This document shows positions 13,033-51,619 of a stretch of DNA of 64,000 nt, in pieces. Source of the stretch: a candidate division FCPU426 bacterium (GTDB lineage: Bacteria; Oederibacteriota; Muellerivitia; Muellerivitales; Muellerivitaceae); the NCBI GenBank assembly GCA_963719085.1, contig CAVRAL010000004.1, forward strand, positions 704,001-768,000. Reading direction: 5' to 3'. The translations under genes were made by a program, and so were the position numbers. Under the pieces are notes generated by a model. It was not told the DNA's origin. It did not search any database and saw nothing but the letters and a program-made list of their open reading frames with translations. Every line of letters starts with the position of its first letter. Within the stretch, counting starts at the first letter, position 1.

Positions 13033-13186
13033 TCAAAATCCTCAGATTACTTGAAGTTAACCCGCAAAAGGGGCCTTTGCGAGCGGGTACGGTTCACTCT
13101 TACGGGCTCATTATATATAATCCTTCTTCCCAAAGGCTTTTGGCTTTGATTGAAGCTGGCCCGAATTGATTCAAAAGGAATTTTTT

Positions 13187-15758: not shown

Positions 15759-17924
15759 ATGCAACAAATTCAAGTCGCCCTCGTTCCCCCGGTTCAACAA
15801 TCTTTCTTGGTGCAGCTGGCCCGTGATTTCCGCTCGGCCTTGAGCTATCTTTCGTTTTATTCCAGCGACAGCCCCTTTGTGGTGGGCGCCATCCGCAAGC
15901 TTCACAAAGATTTACAACGGCTCCTCAATACGGTGAATCCATTGGTGCTTTACCGGCAGGATGGATCGCTTTTCGCCAACGGTTCGGCGCTCAATGAAAC
16001 CGGGGATCTGTTGAAAATTTTCGAGGAAAAAAAATGGGATGCGGTGCTTATTGAAAACGGCCTGGCTTACAACGAATGGGTCTCCTGGCTGCGCCATATG
16101 GCTTTTCCCTTCGAGGAAAATCAAAGTCAAAGTGTTCCTTGGGAGCACTTGCGCCAAATTGAGTTGACCGATTTTATTTTGGAAGAAGCGCCGGCGGCCG
16201 CCTTCGTGGAAGTGCCCGAGGTCACGGCCGTGAACGCGGTGGACATCGCGTTGGAAGCCATCGCCGCCGAATTGCCCGCCGCGCCGACCGAAGAGGACAA
16301 TATTAAAGTCGAGGAGGCCTTCTCGCCCGAATCGCTTCAACCCAATTTATCCGGGGCCCAAATGGAAGAAGTCCCCGCCGCCGCCGAATCCATCCCGGCG
16401 CCGGCGGCCGAAAATCAACCCGCTCAATCCAGCGAAGCGCTTGGCGCGGCCCTTTTGGCCACCGTGGCCGAGGCCTGGCACTTTTCCCGCCTCCTCAAAA
16501 AAACGCCGCGGGAAACCGATGAAAAACTCGCTTTGGATAAAGCGAATTCCCAATTTTTCAACCATCTGTTGGATCGGTTGGATACCGCTTCTCCGGACTT
16601 GAAGGGCATTGTCCAATGGTTCCGCACGTCCCAAGGCGATGTGGTGGACAACGACGCGGTCTTGGCCATGGTGCCTTTGATGGAAATCGCGATTCATCAC
16701 CAGTGGACCGTGGTTCTTTTTGATCCGGCCACCGAAGGCCTGGTGAATGACTGCTTGGGCTTGTGGGGCGCCCAAGGCAATCAGGAACTGGTGGAAAAAA
16801 CCGTGACCGCCTTAGCCGAGGGGCTCAACCGCACCGAATCCGAACGGCGCATCGCCTTGACCCATTTGATGGATGCCCGGCCCTGGGTGCATGATCCGGC
16901 CCTTTTGGGAAAAGTTTTGGAGCAGCTTTGCCATTTACTCAGCGCTGAAAAAAATCCGGGCGTCTACCAAAGCGCCCTGCTTTCGGCTTGGGACTTGGTG
17001 GAACCCGCCCTCGAGACCAACAACGAAAACTCGGCCCTGAGCCTTTTATCCACCCTTCATTTTCACGCGGATGACGATGAGCCCTCGTCCGAGTTCCCGG
17101 AAAGGGCTTCCATCGCCCGGCATTGGCTTTTTGAGCGCTCCAATCCCGATCTCATTCGCCGCATGGCCGCTTGCGCCTATCAAGCCGGCCGGCTGGATCA
17201 TTTCCCCCTTTTAGGCGAGATGGCCGCGCCGCTTTTGCTCGAGGACTATCAAAACGCCGAACCGGACGAAAAGGGGATGCTTTTGGAACTTTTCGCCGAG
17301 ATGAGCGATCCCTTGCGCTCGGTCTTGACTGAGCGGGTCGCCGATCTGGAGACGCCCGAGGATCTGCGTTTGCTGATGCCGGTTTTAAAAACCGCCGGCA
17401 TGGACGCCGTTCTGTCCTTCCAGCTGTCCCCCTGGTTTTCCAGGGGCGACCGGGAATTTAAACTGAACCTGATCGGTTTGATTGAGCAGATCGGAAACTC
17501 CGAGGGAGGTCCCGCCCTTCGTCTGGCGCTTTTTGACGATTCGGAGGAGATTGCCTCGGAAGCCGCCAAGGTCCTGGGCAAGATCGGCTTCACGCCCGCC
17601 GGGCCGGTTCTCATTAAGGCTTTGAAGCTTCGGCAAAGCCGCGGACCTGACCATGAGCAATTTTCCATCGAGGTTTGCCGGGCGCTGGGCCATTTGGGAC
17701 AGCCGGAGAATATTTCCTTTTTAGAGGAGATGGCCAAGAAAAAATCCCTCTTCCGGGGAGCCAACGCGCCCTTGCCGGTGAGGCTGGCCGCCATCGAGGC
17801 TTTAGGGGAGATCAATCAACCCGCGGTCTGGGAATTTTTTGAGTCTTTGGCCGCCGAAAAAAATCCGGAACTTCAACAAACTTTGGACAAGATCATCCAC
17901 TCCAAGGCCGCTCAAGCGGTTTAA
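15759..17924 (+). CDS. HEAT-repeat protein with acidic Ala/Pro/Glu-rich linker
   Basis: C-terminal repeats (AAKVLGKIG, CRALGHLG, VRLAAIEALG); AAGGAG RBS. Confidence 0.75.
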   Translation: MQQIQVALVPPVQQSFLVQLARDFRSALSYLSFYSSDSPFVVGAIRKLHKDLQRLLNTVNPLVLYRQDGSLFANGSALNETGDLLKIFEEKKWDAVLIENGLAYNEWVSWLRHMAFPFEENQSQSVPWEHLRQIELTDFILEEAPAAAFVEVPEVTAVNAVDIALEAIAAELPAAPTEEDNIKVEEAFSPESLQPNLSGAQMEEVPAAAESIPAPAAENQPAQSSEALGAALLATVAEAWHFSRLLKKTPRETDEKLALDKANSQFFNHLLDRLDTASPDLKGIVQWFRTSQGDVVDNDAVLAMVPLMEIAIHHQWTVVLFDPATEGLVNDCLGLWGAQGNQELVEKTVTALAEGLNRTESERRIALTHLMDARPWVHDPALLGKVLEQLCHLLSAEKNPGVYQSALLSAWDLVEPALETNNENSALSLLSTLHFHADDDEPSSEFPERASIARHWLFERSNPDLIRRMAACAYQAGRLDHFPLLGEMAAPLLLEDYQNAEPDEKGMLLELFAEMSDPLRSVLTERVADLETPEDLRLLMPVLKTAGMDAVLSFQLSPWFSRGDREFKLNLIGLIEQIGNSEGGPALRLALFDDSEEIASEAAKVLGKIGFTPAGPVLIKALKLRQSRGPDHEQFSIEVCRALGHLGQPENISFLEEMAKKKSLFRGANAPLPVRLAAIEALGEINQPAVWEFFESLAAEKNPELQQTLDKIIHSKAAQAV

Positions 17925-17970
17925 CCAAAAAACCGCGACGGGAGACCGCGCTTCTCTCCCCACGCGGCCC

Positions 17971-18008
17971 AAACCCCTTTCGTCCCAAGACGAAAGGGGT
18001 TTATTTTT
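17971..18008. terminator. Probable bidirectional intrinsic terminator between convergent genes
   Basis: AAACCCCTTTCGTC-ccaa-GACGAAAGGGGTTT perfect stem followed by T-rich run. Confidence 0.8.
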
Positions 18009-19276
18009 TAGTTTTCGGCCAACAACCTTTCCCACATATTTTCGTTCAATAAAATCCGATGAAGAAAATCCTGGTCCCCCGCGGACGGAGGATGGGAAAG
18101 CGGATTGGCCGGAATCCGAAGGGTAAAAATCGTTCCGCGCCCGGGTTCGGGGCCGGTTGAGGCCTCAATTTTTCCGCCGTGGTGATAAACGATGAAAAAG
18201 CAAGTCATCAAGTGAAGCCCGAAATCCTGGGGATTATGGCTGCGGACAAAAAACGGGTCAAAGACCGACTGCAGGGCCTCCGAGGACAATCCGGGACCAT
18301 TGTCGGACAATTGAATCTCGATTTCCGCCGGGCCCTGCGCCGGGCCTACCGCTTTGGCTGAAATTTTAACCTCTCCCCCTTCGGGCAGGTTCGCGGACTC
18401 ATCCTCCAAAAGAAGCTCGAAGAGACGATGAAACTTGGCGCCGTCCACTTTCATGAGGGGCAACTGGGCCGAAACCAAATTCTCGACTTTAATTTTTCGT
18501 TTGGCGAGGGAAGATTCGAGTTTTTTCAAGCTCTCATTCACCACGTCCTGGAGCTTCACTTCATCCGGAAAATCATATTTCGGTTTCTCGGAGGCTTCCC
18601 ATAAATCGCTCAGAAGGAACGCCATCTTGTCCATTTGGCTTTGAACTTTTTTATAATAATCCTTCCAAAAGTCGGGATTACGCAACTGTTCCAAGTCAAT
18701 GTTCTCTTCTTTTAGTTTCTTCGGCGCCAGATCCAAGAATGTCTTCACCGCCACCATGGAGTTGCGGATATGGTGGCTTAAGCCGGTGGCCAAAATCCCC
18801 AAACTTAAAATACGGTCCGTCATCATCGTGTTGTGAAGCACGGACATTTTTTCACGCAATAACTGGTCCCGCTCGTTTTGAACGATGAAAAATTCAATGC
18901 CGCGACGCAGGGTATTCTCCAATTGGGGAATATCCCAAGGTTTGGTCACGTATTTATAGATCGCGCCCGTGTTGACCGCCTCAATGGCAGTTTCCAGGTC
19001 CGAATAGGCGGTCACCAATATCCGCAAGATCCGGGGATTGAGCTGACGGGCTTTTTCCAGAAACTGAATTCCCTTTTCCCCCGGCATACGCTGGTCCGTC
19101 ATCAGGACCGCTGTTTTATCCAAGTTCTCTTTAAGAATCCGAAATCCCTCATCGGCGCTGGGCGCCGTCAGGATGGGAAACTTATCCCCGAAGGTTTGGC
19201 GGAAATATTTGAGGGACTTTTCCTCATCATCCACGTAAAGCACATAATATTTTTTGTAATCGTAAAACGCGTCCAT
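18008..19276 (-). CDS. Receiver plus degenerate histidine-kinase protein (PhcR-like)
   Basis: REC (YVDDEE, MTDQRMP, TKPW), H-box GLSHHIRNS, DNGPG, FDPFF; no DNA-binding domain; AAGGAG RBS before ATG 19276. Confidence 0.85.
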   Translation of the reverse strand: MDAFYDYKKYYVLYVDDEEKSLKYFRQTFGDKFPILTAPSADEGFRILKENLDKTAVLMTDQRMPGEKGIQFLEKARQLNPRILRILVTAYSDLETAIEAVNTGAIYKYVTKPWDIPQLENTLRRGIEFFIVQNERDQLLREKMSVLHNTMMTDRILSLGILATGLSHHIRNSMVAVKTFLDLAPKKLKEENIDLEQLRNPDFWKDYYKKVQSQMDKMAFLLSDLWEASEKPKYDFPDEVKLQDVVNESLKKLESSLAKRKIKVENLVSAQLPLMKVDGAKFHRLFELLLEDESANLPEGGEVKISAKAVGPAQGPAEIEIQLSDNGPGLSSEALQSVFDPFFVRSHNPQDFGLHLMTCFFIVYHHGGKIEASTGPEPGRGTIFTLRIPANPLSHPPSAGDQDFLHRILLNENMWERLLAEN

Positions 19277-19292
19277 GATCGTCTCCTTCAAG

Positions 19293-21962
19293 CTAGGCTG
19301 TTTTTTCTTCCGCCCGCGCGGGCAAATCGAGCGTAAATTCCGCCCCATTTCCCTTTTCACTTCTGACCGAAATCCGGCCTTCTTGTTCCTGCAAGATCCT
19401 AAAACAAAGGCTCAGCCCCAATCCCATTCCTTGCCCGACGTCTTTGGTGGTAAAAAAAGGATCAAAAATCTTATCCATGACTTGCGGGTCGATCCCCGCC
19501 CCGTTGTCCCGGACTTTAATGAGAACCCGGTTGTTTTCTTCCCGGCTTTCAATGAAAAGCCGGGCTTCATCCTTCTCGAATTTCTTTTCTTTTAAGGCGT
19601 CGCCGGCGTTCTGGATCAAGTTGATGAAAACCTGCACCATTTTATTACTGTCCGCCAGCATGGTTTGTTCTTCCGGAATATTCACTTCCACTTTCACGTG
19701 GTCTTTTAACTCATGGCTTAAAAAACGTAAGGCCGTGTCCACAACCCCCTTCACCTCGATTAAATCCTTGCCCCCCCCCATGTGGGGATGGGTGAACGTC
19801 CGAAGGTCGGTGACGATCCGCTTCACCCTTTGGACACCGTCTTCGATATCGTCCAACACTTCCGTGTAAACCGGGCGTTCGGCTTCGGGCAGTTGGTCTT
19901 TTTTTGTTCTTAGAACATACAGGGCCTGGGCCGCATAGTTAAGCGGATTATTAATTTCATGGATAAGCCCGGCGCTTAAGCGGCCGAGTGAGGCCATTTT
20001 TTCATTTTGAACCAACTGTCCTTCGGTTTCTTTCAATTGTTCGAGTGTCGATTCCAGTGCATTTTTCTCGCGCGCCAAATCACGCTGATAATGGTGGGAT
20101 TCGACCAAATTTTTCACGCGAACGTGCAATTCGGTCGTGGAAAAAGGCTTTGACAAAAAATCGCTGGCTCCCGACTCAAGCGCCCGCATTTTGGTCTCAT
20201 CATCCGCGCGGGCCGTGAGCAAAATAATGGGGATTCCCTGGGTGGAAACCTGATTTTTGAGCTCCCGGCACACTTCAATACCGTCTTTTTCGGGCATCAT
20301 CATGTCGAGCAGGATTAAATCCGGGAGAAATTGACGGGATTTTTCCAAGGCTTGCTGCCCGTCCACGGCTTCAATGACCTCGTATTGTTTTTGAAGTTGG
20401 GTTTTTAAAAATCCCAGCATGTCCGGCTCATCATCGGCGATGAGCAATTTCGGCTTGCGGCCCAAGGCGTAAGAATCCGGCCGCAGGGTATCGGCCAAGG
20501 AGGCCATCGTGGGAAAAAGTTCGGCCCTTCGATAAAGTTTTGACAGCCATTCATCCGGTTCCGGGGCGCTGCCGGCCTGACCGGAGGCCTCCTTTTTAAT
20601 TTCCCGGGTTTCGCCTCCCGCGGCCGGCGCCGGAGCGGCTTCATAGGGCAGTTTCACGCTCATCACCGTGCCCTTTCCACTCTCGCTTTGAACGCTCACT
20701 TCGCCGCCTTGGACCTCGGTGAGTTCTTTGACCAACGCCAATCCGATTCCCGTTCCCTGGTATTTGCGGTTGGACGCAGAGTCCGCCTGCCAAAAACGGT
20801 CAAAAATAAACGGAAGATTTTGCGCGGCAATGCCCATACCCGTATCCCGAACTTGCAAAAGAAGAAATGCCTCCTTCTTCTCGGCCTTTAATTCCACCCG
20901 CCCGCCCGCGGGGGTAAACTTCAAGGCGTTAAAGGTGAGATTGAGCACAATTTTTTCCAGTTTATCCCGGTCCAAAAGAACCGTTTCCACTTCCGGAGCG
21001 ACCGTCGTGGTTAAGGCCACCCGCTTATCCCGGGCCACGGCGGATACGGATTGGGTTAGGCCCCGCAAAAACTCGGCTATCGCTACCGGCTCTTTTTTAA
21101 CTTCCATACGCCCGGATTCCAATTTCACTAAATCCAGTAAGTCATTGATCAATTTCAAAAGCCGCAAAGCGTTGCCATGCATAATCTTCAAGGTTCCCCG
21201 GGTTTCCTCGTCCATCCAATTGGCTTTGAGCTGCTGCAGGCTTTCCAAGGGGGCGATCAAAAGCGTTAAGGGCGTCCGCAGTTCGTGGCTGATATTGGCG
21301 AAAAATTGGCTTTTCATCCGGTCAAGCTCGACAAGTTTGCGGTTGTTTTCTTCCAAGGCTTTTTTGTTTTGATCCAACTCAAACCGCAGAACGAACTCCC
21401 GAATGCGCAGCCGATTCGTGAAATAAGTTCCGATGACCGCGAAAGTCGCGGTGAGAGACAAAAAATAAAGATTATTGAAAAAAATGCCGCCGAAATACTC
21501 GTTTCCGTGGCCCACACAAGCGGCCACGTAAATCATCAGGGTGGCGACACAAACAATTAAGGTTTCCTGGTAAGTCCAGGGAACCAGCAGGCAAAAAGCC
21601 ACCAAAACCACGTTTAAGCCGGCGTAGTAGGGAGACACCGCCCCTTCGGTCGAGTAAATCATCCAGGTGATCGCCCCCAGCGGCAACATGGGTAAAATCA
21701 GGAATAAAAGACGGTCATGCCGCAAACCCCAACGGCTGTAAAAAAGCCCGAAAAGCAATCCCACCAAAGCCGAACACATCAACCGAAGTTCCAAGAAATA
21801 ATGAACCTGCTTGGGATAAACCTGCATATCCAGCGAGATGCCCGCGGGCATGGCGATAATGGCGACCCAGCAGATGATCTTAAACAGGCGCCTTCGCTCG
21901 AGTTTGTTGTAGTCCTCGAACGCCTTTTTAACCTCGGGCTGATGGATCAGATCGTTGCTCAT
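19293..21962 (-). CDS. Membrane hybrid sensor kinase, TM-HisKA-HATPase-REC-HisKA-HATPase (PhcS-like input)
   Basis: About 6 N-terminal TM helices, ISHELRTPL, NALKFT, GTGIGL, REC (ADDEPD, LLDMMMP), IHEINNPL, GMGLGL. Confidence 0.9.
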   Translation of the reverse strand: MSNDLIHQPEVKKAFEDYNKLERRRLFKIICWVAIIAMPAGISLDMQVYPKQVHYFLELRLMCSALVGLLFGLFYSRWGLRHDRLLFLILPMLPLGAITWMIYSTEGAVSPYYAGLNVVLVAFCLLVPWTYQETLIVCVATLMIYVAACVGHGNEYFGGIFFNNLYFLSLTATFAVIGTYFTNRLRIREFVLRFELDQNKKALEENNRKLVELDRMKSQFFANISHELRTPLTLLIAPLESLQQLKANWMDEETRGTLKIMHGNALRLLKLINDLLDLVKLESGRMEVKKEPVAIAEFLRGLTQSVSAVARDKRVALTTTVAPEVETVLLDRDKLEKIVLNLTFNALKFTPAGGRVELKAEKKEAFLLLQVRDTGMGIAAQNLPFIFDRFWQADSASNRKYQGTGIGLALVKELTEVQGGEVSVQSESGKGTVMSVKLPYEAAPAPAAGGETREIKKEASGQAGSAPEPDEWLSKLYRRAELFPTMASLADTLRPDSYALGRKPKLLIADDEPDMLGFLKTQLQKQYEVIEAVDGQQALEKSRQFLPDLILLDMMMPEKDGIEVCRELKNQVSTQGIPIILLTARADDETKMRALESGASDFLSKPFSTTELHVRVKNLVESHHYQRDLAREKNALESTLEQLKETEGQLVQNEKMASLGRLSAGLIHEINNPLNYAAQALYVLRTKKDQLPEAERPVYTEVLDDIEDGVQRVKRIVTDLRTFTHPHMGGGKDLIEVKGVVDTALRFLSHELKDHVKVEVNIPEEQTMLADSNKMVQVFINLIQNAGDALKEKKFEKDEARLFIESREENNRVLIKVRDNGAGIDPQVMDKIFDPFFTTKDVGQGMGLGLSLCFRILQEQEGRISVRSEKGNGAEFTLDLPARAEEKTA

Positions 21963-23374
21963 TTTGGTTTTCTTATTTCAAGGAAAACATTAATGCCCGT
22001 AACATCCAAATTCACGGTCCAGGAACCCTCCGGAGCCGCTTCGGGTTTGACCAGTTTCATTTGCGCCGCGTCCCGGTAAATCAAATGCCATTCCATAAAA
22101 CTTTCCATGACATTTTGGAAAGGGTTCGAGGGGGTCACATTGGTGGCCAACAAAAGGCCTCCCGGCGCCAATAGACTGTAAAAATAATCCATCAACTTTT
22201 TGCAAATCCGATCCTCCAAATAATCGAACAAACCGGCGCAATAGATAAAATCGTAGGTTTTTTCCGGCGGCCCCGTGACAGGCTTGAAGGATTCTTTCAA
22301 AATGTGGTTGACGGACTTTTTGACCATCTTGATGGGGGTTCTTCGAAGATGGCGCCTTTTTATTTCTTCCAATGTTTTTCCGGTAAACGCCAAAGTCTCG
22401 TCGTTAAAATCCATTAATTCAAACTCGGCCTTGTCGCAAATCTCGTCTTGGATCAGAAAATTTTGAACTTCCTGCGCGGGGCCGCAAGCCATATTTAAAA
22501 ACGAGGCGACCCGTTTTTCCCGGGCGGCCCGCTCCGTTTCCTCGCTCAACTTCCGCACTAAATGCTTGATTCGATTTCGGTGGGCCTCGCAAGGCGGGGC
22601 GTTGACGAACCAAAAGTTGACGATTTTGGCGAACAGCGAACTGCCCTGAAGCGGATCGCCGAGCATCATGTTGACCATCTCATAATCACCGGCGTATCCC
22701 AGTGGCTTTTGAAAACTCCGGTAGACAAAGGGAGAACAAAGGACGATGGGGTGAATCTGCCGCCGGCTGTAGGAGCGGTGGGTGGACCGCACGTCGCTGG
22801 GTAAACTGGAAATGGTTTCCTCGAACCTTTCAAACAAAGAGCCGACGGCCGGGGTAATGGGGTTTTTTAATTCTTGGATCGAATCCCTCTCCATTTGGAT
22901 CCGGTCCCCCGAAGGCTCCGAGCGGATGCTTAATTCCACTTGTTCCAGCCAACGCCTCATGTCCAACAGGAAAGTTTGCATATCGGCGATGACAACCTTT
23001 AACTCATTGGAAATGAGATGGATTTTCTCCCATTCCTTCAAGAATTCGGCGAATTCGTTTTGAAGTTTGTCTTTTTGGTGGATGGAAGTGAAAATATCCA
23101 CATCCAGCCAGTTTTCTTCCAAGGTGCATTCGCAAACCAACAGGATGCCGGTGTTGACTAGATTGCTGACGACCGCCCGACCGGAATAAACCATCCGGTC
23201 ATTCATGATCATTCTAAAATCGGTTAAAACTTCAGATAATTGGAGAATGCTGTAAGGGTTGTAAACCTCAAAAACCACCGTGTAACGCGTGAGCCTGAGC
23301 AAGGTCGCTCGAAATTCCGTGCCTTGGCTGTTACGGCATACAATGAAAGTGTCTTTACCCGTTGAGATCGACAT
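21959..23374 (-). CDS. phcB: Class I SAM methyltransferase, PhcB-like (3-hydroxy fatty acid methyl ester synthase family)
   Basis: KPLGYAGDYEMVN, SAM motif NMACGPAQE, YDFIYCAGLFDY, LAPGG; followed by sensor and receiver-kinase as in phcBSR; family recognised from memory, not by search. Confidence 0.7.
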   Translation of the reverse strand: MSISTGKDTFIVCRNSQGTEFRATLLRLTRYTVVFEVYNPYSILQLSEVLTDFRMIMNDRMVYSGRAVVSNLVNTGILLVCECTLEENWLDVDIFTSIHQKDKLQNEFAEFLKEWEKIHLISNELKVVIADMQTFLLDMRRWLEQVELSIRSEPSGDRIQMERDSIQELKNPITPAVGSLFERFEETISSLPSDVRSTHRSYSRRQIHPIVLCSPFVYRSFQKPLGYAGDYEMVNMMLGDPLQGSSLFAKIVNFWFVNAPPCEAHRNRIKHLVRKLSEETERAAREKRVASFLNMACGPAQEVQNFLIQDEICDKAEFELMDFNDETLAFTGKTLEEIKRRHLRRTPIKMVKKSVNHILKESFKPVTGPPEKTYDFIYCAGLFDYLEDRICKKLMDYFYSLLAPGGLLLATNVTPSNPFQNVMESFMEWHLIYRDAAQMKLVKPEAAPEGSWTVNLDVTGINVFLEIRKPK

Positions 23375-23442
23375 GGATCCCTTTCCCCAAGGCTTAAAAT
23401 CGACTTATCTTACACGACTCTTAAAAAAAAAATCCCGAAGGC

Positions 23443-24990
23443 TCAGTTCCCCTTGAAAACCCGCAGCAAGGTTCCCAACCCATGTTGCGCGCTCACTCCC
23501 AATAGACCGCCCATCATGGCGCCGGCGATCCCCAATCCCCCCACATCCGCCCCCACCAAGGACAAACCCTTCAAGGGAGTCTTGGCTTTAAGGCTTTTAA
23601 GCCCGTATCGGCGGGGGGTTCCGGGATAACCATAAATGGCCCCTTTTCGGTGGCTGGTGAAATGTTCCACCGAAAGCGGAGTGGACAATTCGGCGAAAGC
23701 GATTTGGGCTCGAAAACCGGGAATACGGCTTTCCACAAAATCCAAAAGGGTTTCGGTGATTTTTTCCTTCAACCTTTGGTATTCGGGCCCCCGCCCCATC
23801 CACTTTTTCCCGCTCCAATCCTGAAAAACGGAATAATCCAGGGGCGCGATAATTTCCGCGGTCGGTCTCATCGCGGCCGGATCCTTCAGCCCCGGAAAAG
23901 AAAGATAACAAGACGAAGCCGTTCCCTGGGCCAATTGGTTTCGGTTTTCCCAAATAACATCGTGGTCAAAGCTGTTATAAATCCAAAAATTTTGACCGTG
24001 GATGCCCAAATGCTCACAACGGGATTTTAGCCCCAGATAAAGGGTCACAACGCCATAGGGAGAAACGGAGGAGATTTCCCTCATTTCATCCTCGTCGATC
24101 AACCCCGGCGGCAAAAGTTCTCCGTAAGTGGCTTGCGCTCCCGCGTCCGAATAGATCTCGGAGGCCTTTACCGTTCGGGGCCCCCGGGAATCTTCCAGCT
24201 CCACCCCGATGGCTTTTGTTCCTTCCATCAAAATCCGCCGTACCCGGCTTCTGACTTTCAGCTCGCCGCCGGCCTCTTGAACCACCTTGGCGATGGCCAA
24301 GCCTAAAGAGGCGCCCGAACCCACCGGATAATAACCCCCTTCGAGATAATGATGGGCGATGACCGCGTGGGTCCCCAGACTCGCCGATTGCGGAGGCAAA
24401 CCGTAGTCCCCCCATTGGGAGGCCACCACGCCTTTCAATCGTTGATCTTGAAACCGGTGATCCAGGTATTTCTTTAAAGGTTGAAGGGCCATTTCCCGGC
24501 ATCGTTGAAAATAATCTTTCTGTCTTTGGCTGCGGCCCGGTCCGGCGAACTGGCCCGGAAGATGGCGCGTCACTAAATCCAAATCACGGAAATAACGCCG
24601 AAGATTCGCTTTCTCCGCCGGAAAAACGCCGGCGAGTTTTTTTAAATAAGCTTCCCGGCCCGAGGGAACCTCAAATTTAAAACCCGGGTAGAGGAATGTT
24701 TCAAAAGGATCTTTCATTTGGACCCAATCGACGCCGCCGCCGGTAATGAAATCCATGGCCCGCCTTAAGGGATTGTTGAGATTCATCTCGCCGACATAAT
24801 GCAATCCCACGTCCCAATGGTAGCCGCCGGGACGTTGGAAGGTATGCGTAAAACCTCCCAGCTTGAAATGCTGTTCAAGCACTAAAACCCGGTAGCCTTT
24901 TATCCGGGCGAGAGCGGCGGCGGCCGCCAATCCGCCGATGCCCGAACCAATAACGATCGCGTCGTAGGAGTCCTCTTTTTCCATCGTCAC
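23443..24990 (-). CDS. FAD oxidoreductase, phytoene desaturase/all-trans-retinol saturase family
   Basis: IGSGIGG, VLEQH..GG..HTF, WDVGLHYVG, STPL..EHF..GAIYG; GTGA overlap with PPTase stop. Confidence 0.85.
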   Translation of the reverse strand: MTMEKEDSYDAIVIGSGIGGLAAAAALARIKGYRVLVLEQHFKLGGFTHTFQRPGGYHWDVGLHYVGEMNLNNPLRRAMDFITGGGVDWVQMKDPFETFLYPGFKFEVPSGREAYLKKLAGVFPAEKANLRRYFRDLDLVTRHLPGQFAGPGRSQRQKDYFQRCREMALQPLKKYLDHRFQDQRLKGVVASQWGDYGLPPQSASLGTHAVIAHHYLEGGYYPVGSGASLGLAIAKVVQEAGGELKVRSRVRRILMEGTKAIGVELEDSRGPRTVKASEIYSDAGAQATYGELLPPGLIDEDEMREISSVSPYGVVTLYLGLKSRCEHLGIHGQNFWIYNSFDHDVIWENRNQLAQGTASSCYLSFPGLKDPAAMRPTAEIIAPLDYSVFQDWSGKKWMGRGPEYQRLKEKITETLLDFVESRIPGFRAQIAFAELSTPLSVEHFTSHRKGAIYGYPGTPRRYGLKSLKAKTPLKGLSLVGADVGGLGIAGAMMGGLLGVSAQHGLGTLLRVFKGN

Positions 24991-25763
24991 CCGGCAGCCG
25001 CCGGCAAGGGGCTTAAATCCCGGGCACGATCATGACTCCTCGAATTCGAAAAAGAGATCAAGGATTCCGGATCCCAATCGTAAATTTGATATTGGCCGGG
25101 CGCGTCATTCTTATTTTTCGTGACCTGGGCCAAACAATAAACACCGCCTTCCAATGTCCGGGTGAAATATTCCCAGCCGCCCGATGAGGCGCGCTCGGGC
25201 GGGGGTAAAGGAACCGTAAATCCACTTAAAGAAAAACAAAGACCTTGCCCAAGGGCTTTGACCATCGCCTCTTTCATGGTGAATAACTGGAAAAAAAGGG
25301 GCCCTTGGGACTCAAGCGGTTGAGAACGAAGAAAGTCGATCTCCCGCGGGGAAAAATAGCGCTCGGCCAACCGCCGGCCCCGCTGAAAGGCTTCGGGGCT
25401 TAAATCAACTTTTTCAACATCAATACCCACTTCACACCAAGAAAATGAACAGGCGATCAATCCTTGGGTATGGGATAAATTAAACCGCAATCGGGTTTTC
25501 TCAAGAACCGGCTTTCCGCCTTCTTGAAAACCAAATCGGATCCGATGGGGGTCGCTTTTTAAGTAAAAGGCGGCGAGCTGCCGCAGGAGCAGACGGGACC
25601 ATAAATATTCCCGGCGCCGGCTTTCCAAGCCGAAATCGCCCATTCGCGACTGTTCGTCTTCCGATAAAAAAGAGGGACGATCGAGAACTGTTTCCTTTAT
25701 CCGAAACAGGTGGATATGAACCGCTTGGGGTTCCAAGGGGGCCGTTTCCCGTTCCAGTGTCAT
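24987..25763 (-). CDS. Sfp-type 4'-phosphopantetheinyl transferase
   Basis: GKP, FNLSHT, GIDVE, FTMKEA; AAGGAAGG RBS before ATG 25763 (alternative start 25796). Confidence 0.9.
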   Translation of the reverse strand: MTLERETAPLEPQAVHIHLFRIKETVLDRPSFLSEDEQSRMGDFGLESRRREYLWSRLLLRQLAAFYLKSDPHRIRFGFQEGGKPVLEKTRLRFNLSHTQGLIACSFSWCEVGIDVEKVDLSPEAFQRGRRLAERYFSPREIDFLRSQPLESQGPLFFQLFTMKEAMVKALGQGLCFSLSGFTVPLPPPERASSGGWEYFTRTLEGGVYCLAQVTKNKNDAPGQYQIYDWDPESLISFSNSRSHDRARDLSPLPAAAG

Positions 25764-25779
25764 AAATCCTTCCTTGATT

Positions 25780-26499
25780 TCAACCCATTCCCCCATCCAA
25801 AACGATCACGCTGCCAGTGAGATAATCCGGGGAGGACTCCGCCAGGAAAAAAACTATCTTGGAAACTTCTTCCACCTCGCAAAACCGGCGCAAGGGAACG
25901 GTTTGAAGAATGGCTTCCTTCGCCTGGGGTGATAACTTTTCAATCATGGGAGTGACAACTCCCCCCGGCGCCACCACATTGGCGATGACGCCGTAAGGCC
26001 CCGCTTCTTTGGCTAAGGCCTTGGTAAATCCGATAATGCCGGCTTTGGAAGCCGAATAATTGGCTTGGCCGGGAAGGCCGTGAATCCCGGAGATCGACGA
26101 GAGATTGATGACCCTCCCCTTTTTCTTTTTCAACATGTCGAAAACAAACCTGCGGGTGAGGTAAAAAACGCCGAAAAGATTCGTGTACAGCACATCCGTC
26201 CAATCCGAATCTTGCATGGAAAACAAAGGTTTGTCCCGGGTGATGCCGGCGTTGTTGACCAAAACGTCCACGCTTCCTTCTTCTTGAAGCACGGCCTTGC
26301 AAAATTGGTCGCAGGCTTCCCGATCCGCCACATCCAGGGCGTGGGCCTTTATTTTCCCCGCGAAACGGTTTTCCATTTCCCGCGCGGAGGCCTCATTGGA
26401 ATGAAAGGTAAAATGGACCTTCCATCCGGCGCCGGCGAATGTTTCAACCAAATTTTTGCCGATCCCCGAGGAGCCGCCCGAAATCACGATTTTTTTCAT
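25780..26499 (-). CDS. fabG: 3-oxoacyl-ACP reductase
   Basis: GGSSGIG, NNAGIT, GQANYSASK; ATG 26499 overlaps fabZ stop (ATGA). Confidence 0.9.
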   Translation of the reverse strand: MKKIVISGGSSGIGKNLVETFAGAGWKVHFTFHSNEASAREMENRFAGKIKAHALDVADREACDQFCKAVLQEEGSVDVLVNNAGITRDKPLFSMQDSDWTDVLYTNLFGVFYLTRRFVFDMLKKKKGRVINLSSISGIHGLPGQANYSASKAGIIGFTKALAKEAGPYGVIANVVAPGGVVTPMIEKLSPQAKEAILQTVPLRRFCEVEEVSKIVFFLAESSPDYLTGSVIVLDGGMG

Positions 26500-26948
26500 G
26501 GCGTTTTCAGCTTCCCGAATAAAAATTTCCCGGTTGCCACCACTTCGCCGTTCACCGTTCCTCTTCCCTCGATGATCCGGTTCGATCCGACGGCTTTGGT
26601 AATGGTCATATGAATCTCCAGTTGATCTCCCGGAACCAGGGGTTTCATAAATCGAAAGTCCGTCACCGCCCCGATCACGTCCACCACTCCCGGAAGCTCC
26701 CCTTCCTCGGTGATCCGGATCAAAATAGCCGCGGTTTGGGCGAAACATTCAATGGTGAGAACCCCCGGGAAAATCGGATTCCCGGGAAAATGACCGGGAA
26801 AATAGATTTCATTGACCGAGATATTTTTAATCGCCCGTAAGTCTTTTCCTTTTTCGAACGAAAGAACCCGATCCACCATCAAGACGGGAAAGCGTTGTTT
26901 TAAAAAAGATAGAACCGGAATTGGGCCCGATTCGTTTTCATTTGGCAC
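26496..26948 (-). CDS. fabZ: 3-hydroxyacyl-ACP dehydratase
   Basis: RFPVLMVDRV, KNISVNE, GHFPGNPIFPGVLTIE. Confidence 0.92.
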   Translation of the reverse strand: MPNENESGPIPVLSFLKQRFPVLMVDRVLSFEKGKDLRAIKNISVNEIYFPGHFPGNPIFPGVLTIECFAQTAAILIRITEEGELPGVVDVIGAVTDFRFMKPLVPGDQLEIHMTITKAVGSNRIIEGRGTVNGEVVATGKFLFGKLKTP

Positions 26949-27186
26949 GAAGCTGCTCTTCGATCATTTTGGCGGAGGAGTCAACCGTGGACATCTGGAC
27001 CAGTTGATCCGGGTCAATCGTGAGATTAAACTCGTTTTCCAATTTGGATAAAAACTCAAGGGCCCGCATGGAATCGTATTTCGCCATTTCGGTGAAGGAT
27101 TTGGACCCCGAAATATCCTCCGGCTGAAGGTCGAACATGCCGGCGATAATTCCCTTTATTTTCGATTGAATTTCAGTTAATTGCAT
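26938..27186 (-). CDS. Acyl carrier protein
   Basis: 82 aa acidic, YDSMRALE motif; AAAGGAG RBS before ATG 27186. Confidence 0.9.
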   Translation of the reverse strand: MQLTEIQSKIKGIIAGMFDLQPEDISGSKSFTEMAKYDSMRALEFLSKLENEFNLTIDPDQLVQMSTVDSSAKMIEEQLRAK

Positions 27187-27197
27187 TTTTTCTCCTT

Positions 27198-28097
27198 TTA
27201 TTTTTTGATTTTGATAAAAGATATTTTCCGTTCCGTTTTTGAGACGGCGGCGACCACTCCGCAAGAATAAGCGCTCGATAAAAAGTGATCCAACGAATCC
27301 GACCCGCCCAATCCCAGTTCTAAAACGGCGGGATTGGGTGAATGGCGGATCAGGCCTCTTGGAAAGCCGGATTCAAGAAAATGCTCTTCCGGAGCGCCCA
27401 ACCATTGCACGCCATTCCATAAAAGCTCAAACCGTTTTTGAAAACCGAGGGGTAGGCTTAAATCCCCCTTCAATTGCAGTGTGAAATAATCCACGACTTC
27501 AAATGAAGCGCCTTGGCTTGCGTCGCCGGAAGCTAATAAAAAGGTCGCGCCTTCCTTAAAAATCATCGCCGAATCGGGCGGCGCCGCCATGGATTTTAGA
27601 AAAGCCGGCGCCTTTTCCACCGCGCCCGCCAAACAAGTTTGAAAAAGCCCGCTGTTATAACCTTCCCAGGCAAAGCCAATGGCGTCCACGAACGAGGTGC
27701 TCCCATTAGTCAGGGTCACGTTCGGGCCTTTTAACTGAAACCATATTCCAATCCGGCTTCCGGCCGCGTTGGCCACGGTGTTGGGGAAATCCATGGGATT
27801 AACCGTATTCGGGCCGTTTAAAAGGGCTTGCGAGTCGAAATCCACCACGCTTTCCATCGAGGCAAAAGCGCTTCCGGCGATCACGGCGAAATTCCGGCGG
27901 GCGGCCTCTTCCAATCCCGCCGCCATTCCATTTAAAGCCCGTGCGGCGGCGATTCCCGCCAACAAGGACAAAGCGTCAATATATTTTGGGGAAACATCAG
28001 GAAAAGATTTTTGAAATTCGGCGGGCAAAGTCTCGATGGTTAACCCATTATTTCCCAGAAACGCGTTGCCTTGGCGGTGAATGATGAGCGGTTTCAA
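27198..28097 (-). CDS. Non-catalytic ketosynthase homologue / chain-length-factor-like protein
   Basis: NPMDFPNTVANAAG..KGPNVTL, catalytic Cys position reads NGSTS, no His motifs; TTG 28097 overlaps KS stop (TTGA). Confidence 0.75.
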   Translation of the reverse strand: MKPLIIHRQGNAFLGNNGLTIETLPAEFQKSFPDVSPKYIDALSLLAGIAAARALNGMAAGLEEAARRNFAVIAGSAFASMESVVDFDSQALLNGPNTVNPMDFPNTVANAAGSRIGIWFQLKGPNVTLTNGSTSFVDAIGFAWEGYNSGLFQTCLAGAVEKAPAFLKSMAAPPDSAMIFKEGATFLLASGDASQGASFEVVDYFTLQLKGDLSLPLGFQKRFELLWNGVQWLGAPEEHFLESGFPRGLIRHSPNPAVLELGLGGSDSLDHFLSSAYSCGVVAAVSKTERKISFIKIKK

Positions 28098-29314
28098 GAA
28101 GCGGCCTCCCGCTTCAATAAAACCAAACACGACGTATTCCCCCCAAAAGCGAAAGAATTCGAAAGGGCGACTTTTCCCTGAAAGGCACGGGATTGATTGG
28201 GCACACAGTCGGACACACAATTTTCATCCTGAATTTCCCAATTCATGGTCGGTAATAATCGGCCGCGATCCAAAGATAAACAAGTCATGACCGCTTCGAT
28301 GGCGCTGGCGGCTCCCATGGTATGGCCGATCATGGACTTGATGGAGTTCACGGGAATTTTACAATCGGTCCCGAATACTTTTTTAATGGCGAAAGATTCA
28401 GTTTTATCGTTCGCCGGGGTTCCGGTGCCGTGGGCCGAGATAAAATCAATTTTTTCGGGCGCGAGTTGAGCCTGAGCCAAAGCCTTGAGGATGCTTTCGT
28501 AAGCGCCGACTCCCTCGGGATGGGGCGAGGTCATATGAAAGGCGTCCATGCCCAATCCATAACCGCCAATTTCACAATAAATGTGCGCGCCGCGGGCCTT
28601 CGCCGTTTCTAAGTTTTCAAGCAAGAGAACTCCCACCCCCTCGCTTACCACCAATCCTTTTCGGTTGGCGGAAAAGGGCCGGCATTTATCCGGCGTCAGG
28701 GAAAGAAGGCGGTTGAATCCGGTAAAGGCCACGCGGGAAAAAACATCCACTCCCCCGCAAATGGCTAAGTCTAAATTGCCCTGGCGGATTTGCTCAAATC
28801 CCCAGCCAATCGCGTAATTGCCGGAAGCGCAGGCGTTGGAAAAAACCATGGCTTGTCCGCCCACGCCCAAAAAATCAAGGACGGAAAAAGCGATCCGGGA
28901 ACTTTGGACTTTATCAAAGCTATCCGGTTTTATTTCGGCTTGGCGGTTTTTGACATTGAATTCGGACATGCGTTCAGCCAATTGGACTTCGCCCATCGTG
29001 GTTCCAAAATAACTGCCGACCCGAAGGGAATCGATCTGCGCAGCGGTGAGCCCGGCGTCTCGGAGCGCTTCTTGCGTGGCCAGGATGGAGAAAGCCGCGG
29101 CGCCTTCATAGCGGCCCGGGTTTTCTTTTTCAAAAAGATCCAAACGTTGCCGCTGTTTAATTTCACCGCCCACCTTTACTCGATAAGGCGCCGGATCCAA
29201 GGATTGAAGCGGCTCAATCCCGATATCACCGCGAACCATGGCTTCCCAGCTCGTCGCCACGTCTTCCCCCAGAGGACAAATCACGCCGAGGCCTGTGACA
29301 GCGACTTTTTTCAT
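28094..29314 (-). CDS. fabF: Beta-ketoacyl-ACP synthase (FabF-like / type II PKS KS)
   Basis: VAVTGLG, NACASG, SAHGTGT, KSMIGH, SNSFAFGG; GGAG RBS before ATG 29314. Confidence 0.92.
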   Translation of the reverse strand: MKKVAVTGLGVICPLGEDVATSWEAMVRGDIGIEPLQSLDPAPYRVKVGGEIKQRQRLDLFEKENPGRYEGAAAFSILATQEALRDAGLTAAQIDSLRVGSYFGTTMGEVQLAERMSEFNVKNRQAEIKPDSFDKVQSSRIAFSVLDFLGVGGQAMVFSNACASGNYAIGWGFEQIRQGNLDLAICGGVDVFSRVAFTGFNRLLSLTPDKCRPFSANRKGLVVSEGVGVLLLENLETAKARGAHIYCEIGGYGLGMDAFHMTSPHPEGVGAYESILKALAQAQLAPEKIDFISAHGTGTPANDKTESFAIKKVFGTDCKIPVNSIKSMIGHTMGAASAIEAVMTCLSLDRGRLLPTMNWEIQDENCVSDCVPNQSRAFQGKVALSNSFAFGGNTSCLVLLKREAAS

Positions 29315-29500
29315 CCCGGGCTCCTTGCCAAACGCTTGAATCATTCGGGCCAAATTCGCTGATAATTTTCGCGATCAGTCAAAATTAGTTTCACGCTCAT
29401 CTTGCTTTCCCCGTCGGCTTTTAGCGCCATGACTCTTTCGTTGTTTTTCTGTCACTTTTAAGCGGGTTCGAAGTCCACGCCGCAGGTTTGTCTTCTAGAA

Positions 29501-29530
29501 ATGATAACTTGGTTTTCTTTTAAATTACAA
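29501..29530 (-). promoter_or_regulatory. Candidate sigma70 promoter of the KS-to-phcR cluster
   Basis: Minus strand TTGTAA-N18-TATCAT in an AT-rich intergenic region. Confidence 0.45.
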
Positions 29531-29644
29531 AAAAAGGTTGAAATGGGTATTTTTTACACAGAAGTTGTTTATCGCTATTTTTTTGTCAAAACTTGACTAA
29601 AAAATTGATAAAACAATTTTAATTTTGCATGTTTACTGTCAAAA

Positions 29645-30664
29645 CTAGAAAAGAGAAAGTTGGTCGGTTGAGGAAACCGGTTTCATTTTTTTCCGCCCGA
29701 TTTTTAGGCCCGGGGCTCCAAAAACCATGGGAGCCGCGGACTGAACCACCGAAGGCTGCGCGGGCCCTTCGCTTTCAACAAGAACCGGCGCAAGAATGGG
29801 AATCTCGGAGACGATTGGCGTCGATGAAGCCTCAACTTTTTTGCCTTTGCTTTCCAAATAAGCTTTTCCGCCGGCGCACACCGAAAGATACTCGCACCAC
29901 CCGCAAAGACGGCTGGGCTTGACCGGAAAGGCCTTCGCCTTCTCAATTTCCTGGATTTTGGAGACGTATTTTTTTTTCAACCACTCCACTTCTTTGGCGT
30001 TGCGCTCGCTGACCACCAAGTCCTTGTCAAAAGCCACAAAATGCCAAGCCAGCTTCACCTTGGCGCTGGAGCCGATCTTCGGGTTCTGGGAAAGCCCGAT
30101 CTGGTAAAGCGCCAATTGATCCTCGTACTTGGCGTCTTCCTCGCTCATTCGGCGGGAGCTGGTTTTATAGTCGTGGATCCAAAAGGTCCCCTCGCTGTCT
30201 TTTCCCAATCGATCGATGAAGCCCTGCATTTTATATCGGCCGTCCGGGTCCAAATTAAAAAGCACCTTCATCTCAATGCCTTGGGTTTGATCTTGGTCAA
30301 ACGGCTGATATTTATGGTAATAATTTTCAACAAAAAGCTGGCCCTTCTCGTAATAGTCTTCCAGGGTCTGGCCTTCGTGCACAATCCGGATGGGCGTGGG
30401 AAAGCCGCGATCCCGCTGTTTTTTCAGGGCTTCCTGCCATTTATGTTCCCAATGGTTTTTAAAATAATTCAACAGCTCGTTGACGGTGGGAACGCGCTCG
30501 GGAATTTGTTGATAAAGATATTCCATGCACTCATGGAAACGGGATCCCAAAAAAAGCTCAATGCCTTCCGCCACCGGCGGCGGTGTTTTATGGATATAGC
30601 GGAACTCAAATTGGGCGGGGCAGGTGAAGTAGGTATTGACGCGGGAGTAAGAATAAATCGTCAT
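29645..30664 (-). CDS. Stand-alone PD-(D/E)XK nuclease, RecB/Cas4-like with Fe-S cysteines
   Basis: SYS..YFTCPAQF, GFIDRL, IHDYKTS, QLALY, CGWCEYLSVC. Confidence 0.85.
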   Translation of the reverse strand: MTIYSYSRVNTYFTCPAQFEFRYIHKTPPPVAEGIELFLGSRFHECMEYLYQQIPERVPTVNELLNYFKNHWEHKWQEALKKQRDRGFPTPIRIVHEGQTLEDYYEKGQLFVENYYHKYQPFDQDQTQGIEMKVLFNLDPDGRYKMQGFIDRLGKDSEGTFWIHDYKTSSRRMSEEDAKYEDQLALYQIGLSQNPKIGSSAKVKLAWHFVAFDKDLVVSERNAKEVEWLKKKYVSKIQEIEKAKAFPVKPSRLCGWCEYLSVCAGGKAYLESKGKKVEASSTPIVSEIPILAPVLVESEGPAQPSVVQSAAPMVFGAPGLKIGRKKMKPVSSTDQLSLF

Positions 30665-30670
30665 GGGCGG

Positions 30671-30699
30671 ATTATAGCCACTCGCCCCTTAAATGTCGA
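30671..30699 (-). promoter_or_regulatory. sigma70 promoter positioned for leaderless mRNA of the nuclease gene
   Basis: TCGACA-N17-TATAAT, 6 nt, then ATG 30664. Confidence 0.7.
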
Positions 30700-30750
30700 A
30701 CCTCCCGCATCCGGCTTTTTTTTGGCCGGACCTTTTGCTACATTGGAGCC

Positions 30751-46642: not shown

Positions 46643-46689
46643 TTGAAAAGCTCCTTGAAGGTAAATTCGTGGTGACGACTATTGTTTCA

Positions 46690-46980
46690 AAAGACTTTTA
46701 AATTTAACCAAGAGTAGTCGTAGTGGGTGTTGAGGATATGTGCAAATCATTCGGAAATTGATTCCCTGTAATGGTTAGAGCCGAAAAAACGATGGGAATA
46801 ATTTGGGGGTATTATAAGAGAAATCCACAGACCCGCAACTCTTTTGCCCGAAACCGCGACTTATACCCAGGGAGTTCGGCCTTTTGTGAATTTATTTGGG
46901 GAGAACCAGGACGCAAGAGAAAATTTGAATCTTAAATAAAGGACTTGGGGATGGATTTGAATAACTTCGTGGATAAGTCG
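46690..46980. promoter_or_regulatory. oriC part between dnaA and dnaN: AT-rich tract, DnaA-trios and degenerate DnaA boxes
   Basis: Trios GAG TAG TCG TAG 46712-46723; overlapping boxes TGAGGATAT/TGTGCAAAT 46731-46747; TGGGAATAA 46793, TTATACCCA 46861, TTTGAATAA 46956, CGTGGATAA 46968. Confidence 0.75.
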
Positions 46981-46993
46981 CGGGAGGCTTAGC

Positions 46994-48385: not shown

Positions 48386-48454
48386 CCACAAACCTCCCGA
48401 ACGTTAAAAGACATTTAAAACCAACAAAAAGGGGCGAAATGAGATCGGCTGCGA

Positions 48455-49676: not shown

Positions 49677-49689
49677 AAAATTCCAGCTC

Positions 49690-50418: not shown

Positions 50419-50452
50419 GGGTTCCTTTGAAGAGCGCAAAGTGAAAGAGGGG

Positions 50453-51544: not shown

Positions 51545-51619
51545 GAAGGGGATTATTTCATCCGGGCCGGGGCAAGTCATTAACAAAAATTGCGGAGGAA
51601 AAAGAGAAAGGCGCGGTTT

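Follow-up and report, generated by a model that had tools for sequence, protein, structure and literature searches.

A Phc-type signalling trio beside a dedicated KS-CLF-ACP cluster: a candidate lipid-ester signalling system in a candidate division FCPU426 bacterium

Methyltransferases of the PhcB family in Ralstonia and Cupriavidus make methyl 3-hydroxy-fatty-acid signals (methyl 3-hydroxymyristate, methyl 3-hydroxypalmitate), and in Ralstonia the acyl chain of the signal is assumed to come from primary fatty-acid synthesis. The aryl-polyene systems belong to another kind of machinery, the type II ketosynthase/chain-length-factor (KS/CLF) systems, whose products are reduced or polyene chains. 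We know of no KS/CLF system of this kind joined to a PhcB-type methyltransferase and kinases. Here we describe a locus in which genes of both kinds lie head to tail, on the minus strand of a 64,000-nt stretch of DNA from a candidate division FCPU426 bacterium (positions 704,001 to 768,000 of contig CAVRAL010000004.1), referred to below as the window.

Passages of PMC10653808 assign methylation of the signal to PhcB and its sensing to the kinase PhcS, and portray PhcR as a receiver joined to a kinase. PhcR is presented in a part of PMC13269768 as the prototypical receiver-histidine kinase (Rec-HK), beside LvrB of Leptospira. In the available portions of a 2026 review (PMC13220807) and of PMC10653808, Phc signalling counts as something particular to the Ralstonia species complex. 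In a search of open-access papers and preprints, supplements excluded, we found no description of Phc-type modules in Verrucomicrobiota, of a FadL partner for them, or of a joined KS-CLF cluster; in the available portions of PMC12950752 and PMC12503165, Verrucomicrobi and phcB are mentioned only in unrelated passages. The first-pass annotation of the window, which a model had made from the letters alone, knew of no described system with this layout, and our search gave none either. As the JGI collection already labels these methyltransferases PhcB-like, what is new is the presence of the trio outside Betaproteobacteria, its association with FadL, and a clade that carries its own assembly line.

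According to our analysis of open reading frames (ORFs) and start codons, ten head-to-tail ORFs occupy positions 18008-29353 of the minus strand, with the called genes spanning 18008-29314 (Table 1). The upstream genes encode a KS, a truncated CLF-like partner, an acyl carrier protein (ACP), a FabZ-type dehydratase, a FabG-type reductase, a phosphopantetheinyl transferase (PPTase) and a CrtI-like flavoprotein; the last three encode an S-adenosylmethionine (SAM)-dependent methyltransferase, a membrane hybrid kinase and a receiver-kinase. This agrees with the ten co-oriented genes of the first-pass annotation, and every one of its domain calls was confirmed by our Pfam and NCBIfam scans. Its claim of tight spacing was also correct: all junctions are overlaps or gaps of at most 17 nt, with the single exception of a 68-nt gap. 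The gene order is kept in two related loci (L002 and L003), so the arrangement in the window is not due to chance. We propose that these genes form a Phc-type system in which cells signal to each other by a lipid ester and the acyl chain is built in a factory of its own, a reading whose chances we put at about even. In such a system the dedicated assembly line would probably supply the acyl chain.

Table 1. Features of the locus, listed in the direction of transcription.
Feature	Position in the window	Strand	Characteristics
Intergenic region, 330 nt, likely promoter region	29315..29644	-	between nuclease stop (29645) and KS start
KS, 406 aa	28094..29314	-	Pfam ketoacyl-synt N and C domains; ATG start with AAGGAG ribosome-binding site
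KS/CLF junction		-	overlap at TTGA
Truncated KS partner, CLF-like, ~299 aa	27198..28097	-	KS N-terminal domain only; TTG start overlapping KS stop
CLF/ACP junction		-	11-nt gap
ACP, 82 aa	26938..27186	-	PP-binding domain; carrier Ser in YDSMRALEF
ACP/FabZ junction		-	11-nt overlap
FabZ-type 3-hydroxyacyl-ACP dehydratase	26496..26948	-	FabA-like domain; FabZ models 127.4 bits, above NF000582 cut-off
FabZ/FabG junction		-	ATGA overlap
FabG-type 3-oxoacyl-ACP reductase, 239 aa	25780..26499	-	short-chain dehydrogenase, adh_short 1e-53
FabG/PPTase junction		-	16-nt gap; 17-nt overlap with the alternative start
Sfp/HetI-type PPTase	24987..25763	-	ACPS and AASDHPPT_N domains; HetI model 101 bits, below cut-off
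PPTase/flavoprotein junction		-	2-nt gap or 4-nt overlap
CrtI/CrtISO-family FAD oxidoreductase	23443..24984	-	NAD_binding_8 and Amino_oxidase domains
Flavoprotein/methyltransferase junction	23375-23442	-	68-nt gap, at the boundary of the two modules
PhcB-family SAM-dependent methyltransferase, 471 aa, putative signal synthase	21959..23374	-	C-terminal Methyltransf_23
Methyltransferase/kinase junction		-	ATGA overlap (4 nt)
Membrane hybrid kinase, 889 aa	19293..21962	-	sensor with 5-6 transmembrane segments, HisKA-HATPase-REC-HisKA-HATPase
Kinase/receiver-kinase junction		-	16-nt gap
Receiver-kinase (Rec-HK, PhcR/LvrB type), ~422 aa	18008..19276	-	REC, HisKA, HATPase; ATG with AAGGAG site
Two hairpins, terminators, in convergent intergenic region	17934..18002	.	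14-bp stem 17971-18002; stem 17950-17934

The assignment of the methyltransferase to the PhcB family was upheld over its whole length. A translated search of plasmids recovered a Paraburkholderia graminis homologue (L001) with 39% identity over 98% of the length, and residues 1-466 align with a Cupriavidus methyltransferase at 38% identity (E 4e-116). The homology therefore runs end to end and includes the non-catalytic N-terminal half, in which Pfam found nothing even at a permissive threshold. L001 is a phcBSRQ-like operon: the methyltransferase gene is followed by genes for a kinase of 445 aa, a single receiver and a response regulator of 344 aa, and many Cupriavidus species have methyltransferases that are 68-69% identical to that of L001. 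In the protein collection the window enzyme has more than 5,780 relatives, many of which carry the KEGG description PhcB (JGI). No NCBIfam model covers the protein, and a profile search of PDB sequences gave one marginal match. Its AlphaFold2 model (pLDDT 75, below 50 in the N-terminal 100 aa) shows a Rossmann methyltransferase domain with a helical cap, for which Foldseek returned only generic class I methyltransferases, the best being 3ocj.

The likeness of the two kinases to PhcS and PhcR, which had been predicted as well, held for the sensor, one kinase core and the receiver, but not for the overall architecture of the sensor kinase. Five hydrophobic segments exceed the threshold between residues 26 and 153 of the membrane kinase, and a weaker sixth is visible by eye at about 160-181. 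This sensor is 34% identical over 192 aa to that of the Paraburkholderia PhcS-like kinase (E 5e-27), with hydrophobic segments at matching positions, and the second kinase core (core B) is 37% identical to the same protein over 257 aa. At a permissive Pfam threshold the sensor domain gave only weak MASE8 and Lnb-TM hints. A PhcS-type sensor kinase, polytopic and loop-less, thus directly follows the methyltransferase, but PhcS consists of a sensor and a single kinase core, whereas here the PhcS-like core is the second of two. The receiver-kinase is 38% identical to the PhcR-like protein of L001 (E 2e-43) across the REC domain and linker only, and has the make-up of a PhcR-type response regulator with a kinase-like output.

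By sequence, the last three genes are genuinely homologous to an operon of the PhcB/PhcS/PhcR type. They share with phcBSRQ of Ralstonia and Cupriavidus the order methyltransferase, sensor kinase, receiver-kinase, with all three members homologous. They differ from it in the host lineage and in the kinase, which has 889 aa instead of 445 and carries, behind its sensor and ahead of the PhcS-like core, another HisKA/HATPase core and a receiver. No single-domain receiver of the PhcQ type was found in the window operon. The KS-CLF-ACP-FabZ-FabG-PPTase-flavoprotein genes directly upstream have no counterpart in the betaproteobacterial operon that we examined (L001). A scan of large ORFs of the window gave no LysR domain, although no search was aimed at a PhcA-like regulator; genes for partners of the PhcQ and PhcA types may lie elsewhere in the genome.

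The kinase pair also resembles the LvrA/LvrB phosphorelay of pathogenic Leptospira: the membrane kinase shares with LvrA the domain order kinase-receiver-kinase. The LvrA model matches residues 193-881 of the window kinase with 326 bits, a score far below its cut-off, and the partner is a Rec-HK, as LvrB is in the portions available of PMC13269768 and PMC5863495. LvrA is described in part of PMC5863495 as having no transmembrane region, whereas the window kinase carries a sensor with 5-6 transmembrane segments. The word "methyltransferase" is absent from the main text of both Lvr papers (PMC13269768, PMC5863495).

Upstream of the trio, the KS is predicted to be catalytically competent: its Cys-His-His triad is intact in the alignment, with the motifs NACASG, SAHGTGT and GHTMGAAS, and its AlphaFold model (pLDDT 86) superposes on FabF structures with a TM-score of 0.92. 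In the adjoining protein a Ser replaces the catalytic Cys, and the C-terminal half, which would bear the His residues, is missing; the protein is therefore a CLF-like inactive subunit, as had been suggested. The translational coupling of an active KS to an inactive partner, and the presence of a dedicated ACP with an Sfp-type PPTase, are both features of KS/CLF type II systems. The PPTase starts either at an ATG at 25763, with the ribosome-binding site AAGGAAGG, or at 25796. The best solved match of both KS subunits is the recent PDB entry 9s5h, chains B and C (E 1.5e-105 and 1e-20); a literature search with its code returned zero papers. The KS/CLF structure of the ishigamide system, 6kxd, is also among the matches of the KS subunits. 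The cluster shares with the Iga KS/CLF and the other reduced-chain or polyene systems the pairing of an active KS with an inactive partner, a separate ACP, genes for a ketoreductase and a dehydratase, and the lack of an enoyl reductase. It differs from these systems in that the partner is truncated (about 299 aa, with no C-terminal half) and nearly lineage-specific.

We considered whether these genes are the housekeeping fatty-acid synthase (FAS) set of the cell and rejected this. Against the NCBIfam equivalogs, the KS scores 368.7 bits with the fabF model (cut-off 493.75) and the ACP scores 37-40 with the AcpP models (cut-offs 66-106), so that both fail, while FabZ and FabG pass one model each (for FabG, 232 bits with the NF009466 subfamily, cut-off 222). 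FabZ also matches FabZ structures in the PDB, with E values down to 9e-32. Because the KS and ACP fall below the curated cut-offs, the cluster is a dedicated synthase, which is what the first-pass annotation had claimed in calling it a dedicated type II FAS/polyketide synthase (PKS) cluster. The flavoprotein has carotenoid isomerase, CrtD and the crtI family as its best NCBIfam models, all below the curated cut-offs, and matches PDB entries 4rep and 4dgk at about 1e-11; it may act as a saturase, a desaturase or an isomerase.

The connection between the two modules extends beyond the window. In L002 and L003 the assembly cluster lies directly upstream of the methyltransferase, and a quick tree groups the window with L002 and L003, at an SH-aLRT support of 100. 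Compared with these two loci, the PPTase is only 35-44% identical and the CLF-like partner 55-63%, and the upstream flank of L003 differs from that of the window; the conserved order is therefore not simply a matter of recent common descent. Relatives of the KS comprise 44 clusters at 69-100% identity, followed by proteins of at most 54% identity in unrelated phyla. For the CLF-like partner, five relatives (one full-length, four fragments) were found at E<=1e-30 among 1.84 billion representatives, the other matches covering residues 70-205 only at about 40% identity. The partner thus appears almost confined to the linked methyltransferase clade.

When the contigs of methyltransferase and KS relatives were compared, 22 of identical nucleotide size were shared, identical size being a proxy for the same contig. 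The first comparison gave 14, with methyltransferases 64-84% identical to that of the window, and the members of the clusters added eight more (91,359; 842,592; 779,338; 20,402; 398,825; 14,347; 25,444; and 198,836 nt). Methyltransferase contigs of 779 and 842 kb, which had looked like exceptions, were resolved in this way by KS matches of the same size. None of 63 methyltransferase clusters with at most 63% identity had a KS contig of the same size. Three of the shared contigs measure only 6,585, 6,714 and 8,778 nt, so the KS and methyltransferase genes must lie close together there.

We also built a FastTree phylogeny of 202 methyltransferases with a betaproteobacterial root. The smallest clade that contains the 14 first-matched tips, the window, L002 and L003 has 38 tips, with no FadL-linked locus inside it, and the methyltransferase clusters of the eight later matches all fall among these same tips. 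KS matches were found for 21 of its 35 protein clusters, and 13 of the other 14 lie on contigs shorter than 8 kb. We therefore rejected the possibility that the link is limited to three genomes, as the KS and CLF relatives and the 22 shared contigs extend it across the clade. The prediction that the FAS genes and the phcBSR-like genes co-occur in relatives is thus borne out across one clade.

The tailoring genes are less constant. Where the window has FabG, L002 encodes a type II thioesterase (L002:7968-8759; PF00975, E 7.8e-31), and FabG and the CrtI-like gene are both absent from this locus. The claim that the assembly line has its own tailoring oxidoreductase is accordingly right for the window and L003, which carry the flavoprotein, but neither the flavoprotein nor FabG is a constant part of the cluster. 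The tailoring set seems to be interchangeable, consisting either of a flavoprotein and a ketoreductase or of a thioesterase. With a thioesterase beside a carboxyl methyltransferase, acyl-ACP could be turned into a fatty acid methyl ester in the simplest way. As the L002 enzyme would free the acid for carboxyl methylation, it lends modest support to a single pathway.

To place the trio among its relatives, we used the results of a genome scan with the methyltransferase, which gave at least 592 pattern matches in species-representative genomes, at least 577 of them confirmed; the neighbourhood counts below come from the best 80 loci. Sixty-nine of these are from Verrucomicrobiota, five are labelled "delta proteobacterium", three are unclassified, and Pyrinomonadaceae, Binatia and Syntrophobacteraceae account for one each. 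The hybrid kinase, with at least 90% coverage, directly follows the methyltransferase in 64 of the 65 loci with enough downstream DNA, and the receiver-kinase follows the kinase in 61 of 63. Partial matches to the receiver-kinase were all that was found in L016 and L049. The exception to kinase adjacency is L002, in which 1.7 kb is inserted between the two genes. This insert (L002:11417-13150) contains two small, mutually similar ORFs on opposite strands, each with a hydrophobic leader and a lipobox-like Cys; the one that was scanned of the two (11533-11940) has no Pfam match.

The commonest neighbour in these loci is a FadL/TodX outer-membrane channel of 420-530 aa (Pfam E 5e-40 and 1e-44), present on either strand in 47 of the 80 and located within 2.6 kb upstream in 39 of 67 (for example L010:8503-9825 and L004:8426-9751). 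Genes for KS and CLF were found upstream in two (L002 and L003) of the 55 loci with at least 6 kb of upstream DNA. The FadL-linked trio of Verrucomicrobiota and a few other phyla is otherwise much like that of the window, with methyltransferases of 51-62% identity, 96-99% coverage of the 889-aa kinase and the receiver-kinase in the same order; it has FadL/TodX beside the methyltransferase and no KS, CLF or ACP, and the window shows the reverse. No FadL gene was found in the 64 kb of the window, nor in L001, L002 or L003. The expected neighbourhood of KS-CLF-ACP and a PhcB homologue is therefore real in L002 and L003, but most relatives are free of FAS genes and have FadL instead.

A hydrophobic signal would be consistent with a FadL channel encoded next to the synthase. 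In part of PMC9938287, FadL is reported to modulate long-chain acyl-homoserine-lactone signals in rhizobia, and FadL would therefore fit a signalling role too.

Two further kinds of neighbour were seen at these loci and not in the window. An extra kinase or receiver-kinase gene lies right after the trio in many of them, for example at L004:15396-16601, L005:15377-16555 and L064:8835-9974. Immediately upstream of the methyltransferase, five loci (L061, L064, L073, L074 and L081) share a protein family whose L064 member is a REC-HATPase protein according to Pfam. In L061 the gene lies on the opposite strand, and in the other four loci it runs in the same direction as the methyltransferase gene.

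Transcription signals were analyzed at both ends of the cluster and at the module boundary. The gap upstream of the KS contains one sigma-70-like match, at 29530-29501; however, the consensus scan found 9 matches against 9.3 expected, which is not above chance, and is therefore uninformative. At the other end, a closing terminator had been proposed, and two hairpins are indeed present after the last stop codon: the sequence 17934-18002 folds far better than its shuffles (z -4.55, 0 of 200 as good), and the stem 17950-17934 is followed by GTTTTTT on the minus strand. Rfam, at E<=0.1, gave nothing in 17000-31500.

At the module boundary, the 68-nt gap shows no significant structure (z +0.92); it begins with a T10 run right after the stop codon and has GGGGAAAGGG ahead of the methyltransferase ATG. 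The same junction is longer in the relatives, at 293 nt after the PPTase ORF in L002 and 108 nt after the flavoprotein ORF in L003. Both of these carry ACAAACTATAAT, which contains TATAAT, about 87 nt before the methyltransferase start (L002:9914-9925 and L003:8859-8870). With up to two mismatches allowed, the motif occurs in 3 of 78 upstream regions, exact in L002 and L003 and with two mismatches, at another distance, in L009; it is absent from the 68-nt gap of the window. It may be a plausible separate promoter.

Several of our results weigh against this proposal of a dedicated factory. FAS genes are missing from most relatives of the trio, as the KS and CLF counts above and their absence from L001 show; since the trio works without them there, the methyltransferase does not need them. 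Separate transcription of the two modules is possible, given the ACAAACTATAAT motif in L002 and L003 and the T10 run in the window. The contents of the cluster vary, with FabG and the flavoprotein in the window and L003 and a thioesterase in L002. In the window, Pfam and NCBIfam identified no thioesterase, acyltransferase or enoyl reductase among the genes of the cluster, so release and reduction would fall to host enzymes or to the flavoprotein; with a ketoreductase and a dehydratase in place, the chain might still be reduced, either by FabI of the host or by the flavoprotein. The sensor gives no sign of a shift in ligand, because it is no more diverged than in other pairs: the ratio of transmembrane to core identity is 0.75 in the window and 0.77 in 1523 other pairs of similar overall identity. 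The connection to Phc runs through homologues from Paraburkholderia and Cupriavidus, not through the characterised PhcB, PhcS and PhcR of Ralstonia. As for the clade, the shared contigs are counted through the size proxy, the node of the 38 tips has weak support (0.40), and one of its protein clusters, P0027 (23,003 nt), has no match among those KS cluster members that were read. The 38-tip clade may also be one taxon, and shared ancestry would then contribute to the conserved adjacency.

Much of this evidence would also be expected if the two modules were neighbours and not one pathway. The cluster would then make a separate specialised lipid, for example a polyene or an unusual membrane or pigment lipid, either unrelated to the trio or regulated by it as an output, and the methyltransferase would draw 3-hydroxyacyl intermediates from primary fatty-acid synthesis. 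Such an arrangement would agree with the scarcity of KS and CLF among trio loci (2 of 55), with the TATAAT motif before the methyltransferase in L002 and L003, and with the position of the only sizeable gap of the window exactly at the module boundary. A KS-CLF system that includes a ketoreductase and a dehydratase and lacks an enoyl reductase also resembles the polyene type II PKSs, as the 6kxd match illustrates, and look-alikes of the CLF-like partner occur in many phyla. However, the adjacency persists across a diverged clade (22 shared contigs, methyltransferases down to 64% identity, PPTases at 35-44%), and the families of close KS (at least 69%) and CLF relatives are small, similar in size to the linked methyltransferase clade. 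No close member of the KS or CLF family was placed on a contig that has no methyltransferase, all genes lie on the same strand, and there is neither a terminator structure in the gap nor a transcription factor in the module. We consider such neighbouring modules somewhat less likely than a single pathway.

The frequency of FadL raises another possibility, namely that the trio serves in the sensing and handling of environmental fatty acids and is not a self-made quorum-sensing circuit: FadL would import the acids, the methyltransferase would esterify them for detoxification or turnover, the kinase would report the lipid load, and the FAS-like product would be handled likewise. According to Pfam, FadL proteins are known above all as importers of hydrophobic compounds, and the family is present in 47 of the 80 loci; our literature search gave nothing on these systems and no demonstrated signal for non-betaproteobacterial members. 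Yet the synthase, sensor and receiver-kinase are all homologous to those of a phcBSRQ-like operon whose methyltransferase is 68-69% identical to Cupriavidus enzymes, and the modulation of acyl-homoserine-lactone signals by FadL in rhizobia, reported in part of PMC9938287, links the channel to signalling; fatty-acid handling is thus an unlikely explanation. It is still harder to believe that the methyltransferase acts at the start of the pathway, in the manner of BioC or Art28, on an ACP-bound starter, with an omega-methyl-ester as the product. In another system, a polyketide starter is reported to arise by on-line methyl esterification of malonyl-ACP (PMC8302727), and the window cluster has no thioesterase, both of which would suit such a role. 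But the enzyme is a full-length member of the PhcB family and not of the BioC type, its family mostly has no KS or ACP neighbours, and L002 does encode a thioesterase, so that we consider starter methylation highly improbable.

Under the proposed Phc-type system with its own factory, the PPTase would activate the dedicated ACP, on which the KS and its inactive partner would extend the acyl chain, with the lineage-specific partner setting the chain length. FabG and FabZ would process the beta-carbon, and host enzymes or the CrtI-like flavoprotein would fill the remaining roles. The PhcB-type enzyme would then methylate the carboxyl group of the released acid, 3-hydroxylated or modified, to give a membrane-permeant methyl ester. 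This ester would partition into the membrane, where the transmembrane domain of the kinase would sense it. Kinase core A would hand phosphate on to the internal receiver and core B, from which it would reach the receiver-kinase and finally a regulator encoded elsewhere. As the trio of most relatives works beside FadL with no such factory, the factory would be a clade-specific addition. Taken jointly, our results suggest that Phc-type signalling is not confined to Ralstonia and Cupriavidus but forms a large unrecognised quorum-sensing family, with FadL as its usual helper, in Verrucomicrobiota and a few other phyla, and that one clade has swapped primary metabolism for a private KS-CLF/ACP line. 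We offer this wider picture tentatively, as one that has somewhat less than an even chance of being correct in all its parts.

The synthase-sensor-relay unit is present in hundreds of genomes of a poorly studied phylum, and one clade combines it with a dedicated carrier-protein line. If the proposal is true, the signal would be of a new chain length or unsaturation, a private signal chemistry for the clade and the first autoinducer of this class to be built on its own carrier protein. A functional link would show a family of lipid signals diversifying its chemistry, as acyl-homoserine-lactone and DSF-type signals do, and would provide a defined 11-kb cassette for a new class of signal molecule, as well as an entry to cell-cell communication in Verrucomicrobiota. 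If the link is not functional, knowing how widely the trio and its FadL partner occur would remain of use for annotation.

The window, which is chromosomal, spans the surroundings of the replication origin, with dnaA and dnaN on the minus strand and yidC, jag, mnmE, mnmG, rsmG, recF and gyrB on the plus strand (45518-48391 and 53793-63999); the cumulative GC skew turns at about 40 kb. It contains no tRNA genes. Directly upstream of the cluster, a stand-alone PD-(D/E)XK (Cas4-like) nuclease is encoded on the minus strand (29645-30664); it is kept in L002, with 60% identity, and not in L003. A pair of AddA/AddB-like helicase-nuclease genes (1109 and 1096 aa; 6500-13032, minus strand) stands beside ispH (13166-14029) and a gene for a SnoaL-like protein. 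Between dnaA and yidC, the minus strand carries the cobalamin genes cbiX, cobS, a cobT-like phosphoribosyltransferase gene and cobU (48933-52972).

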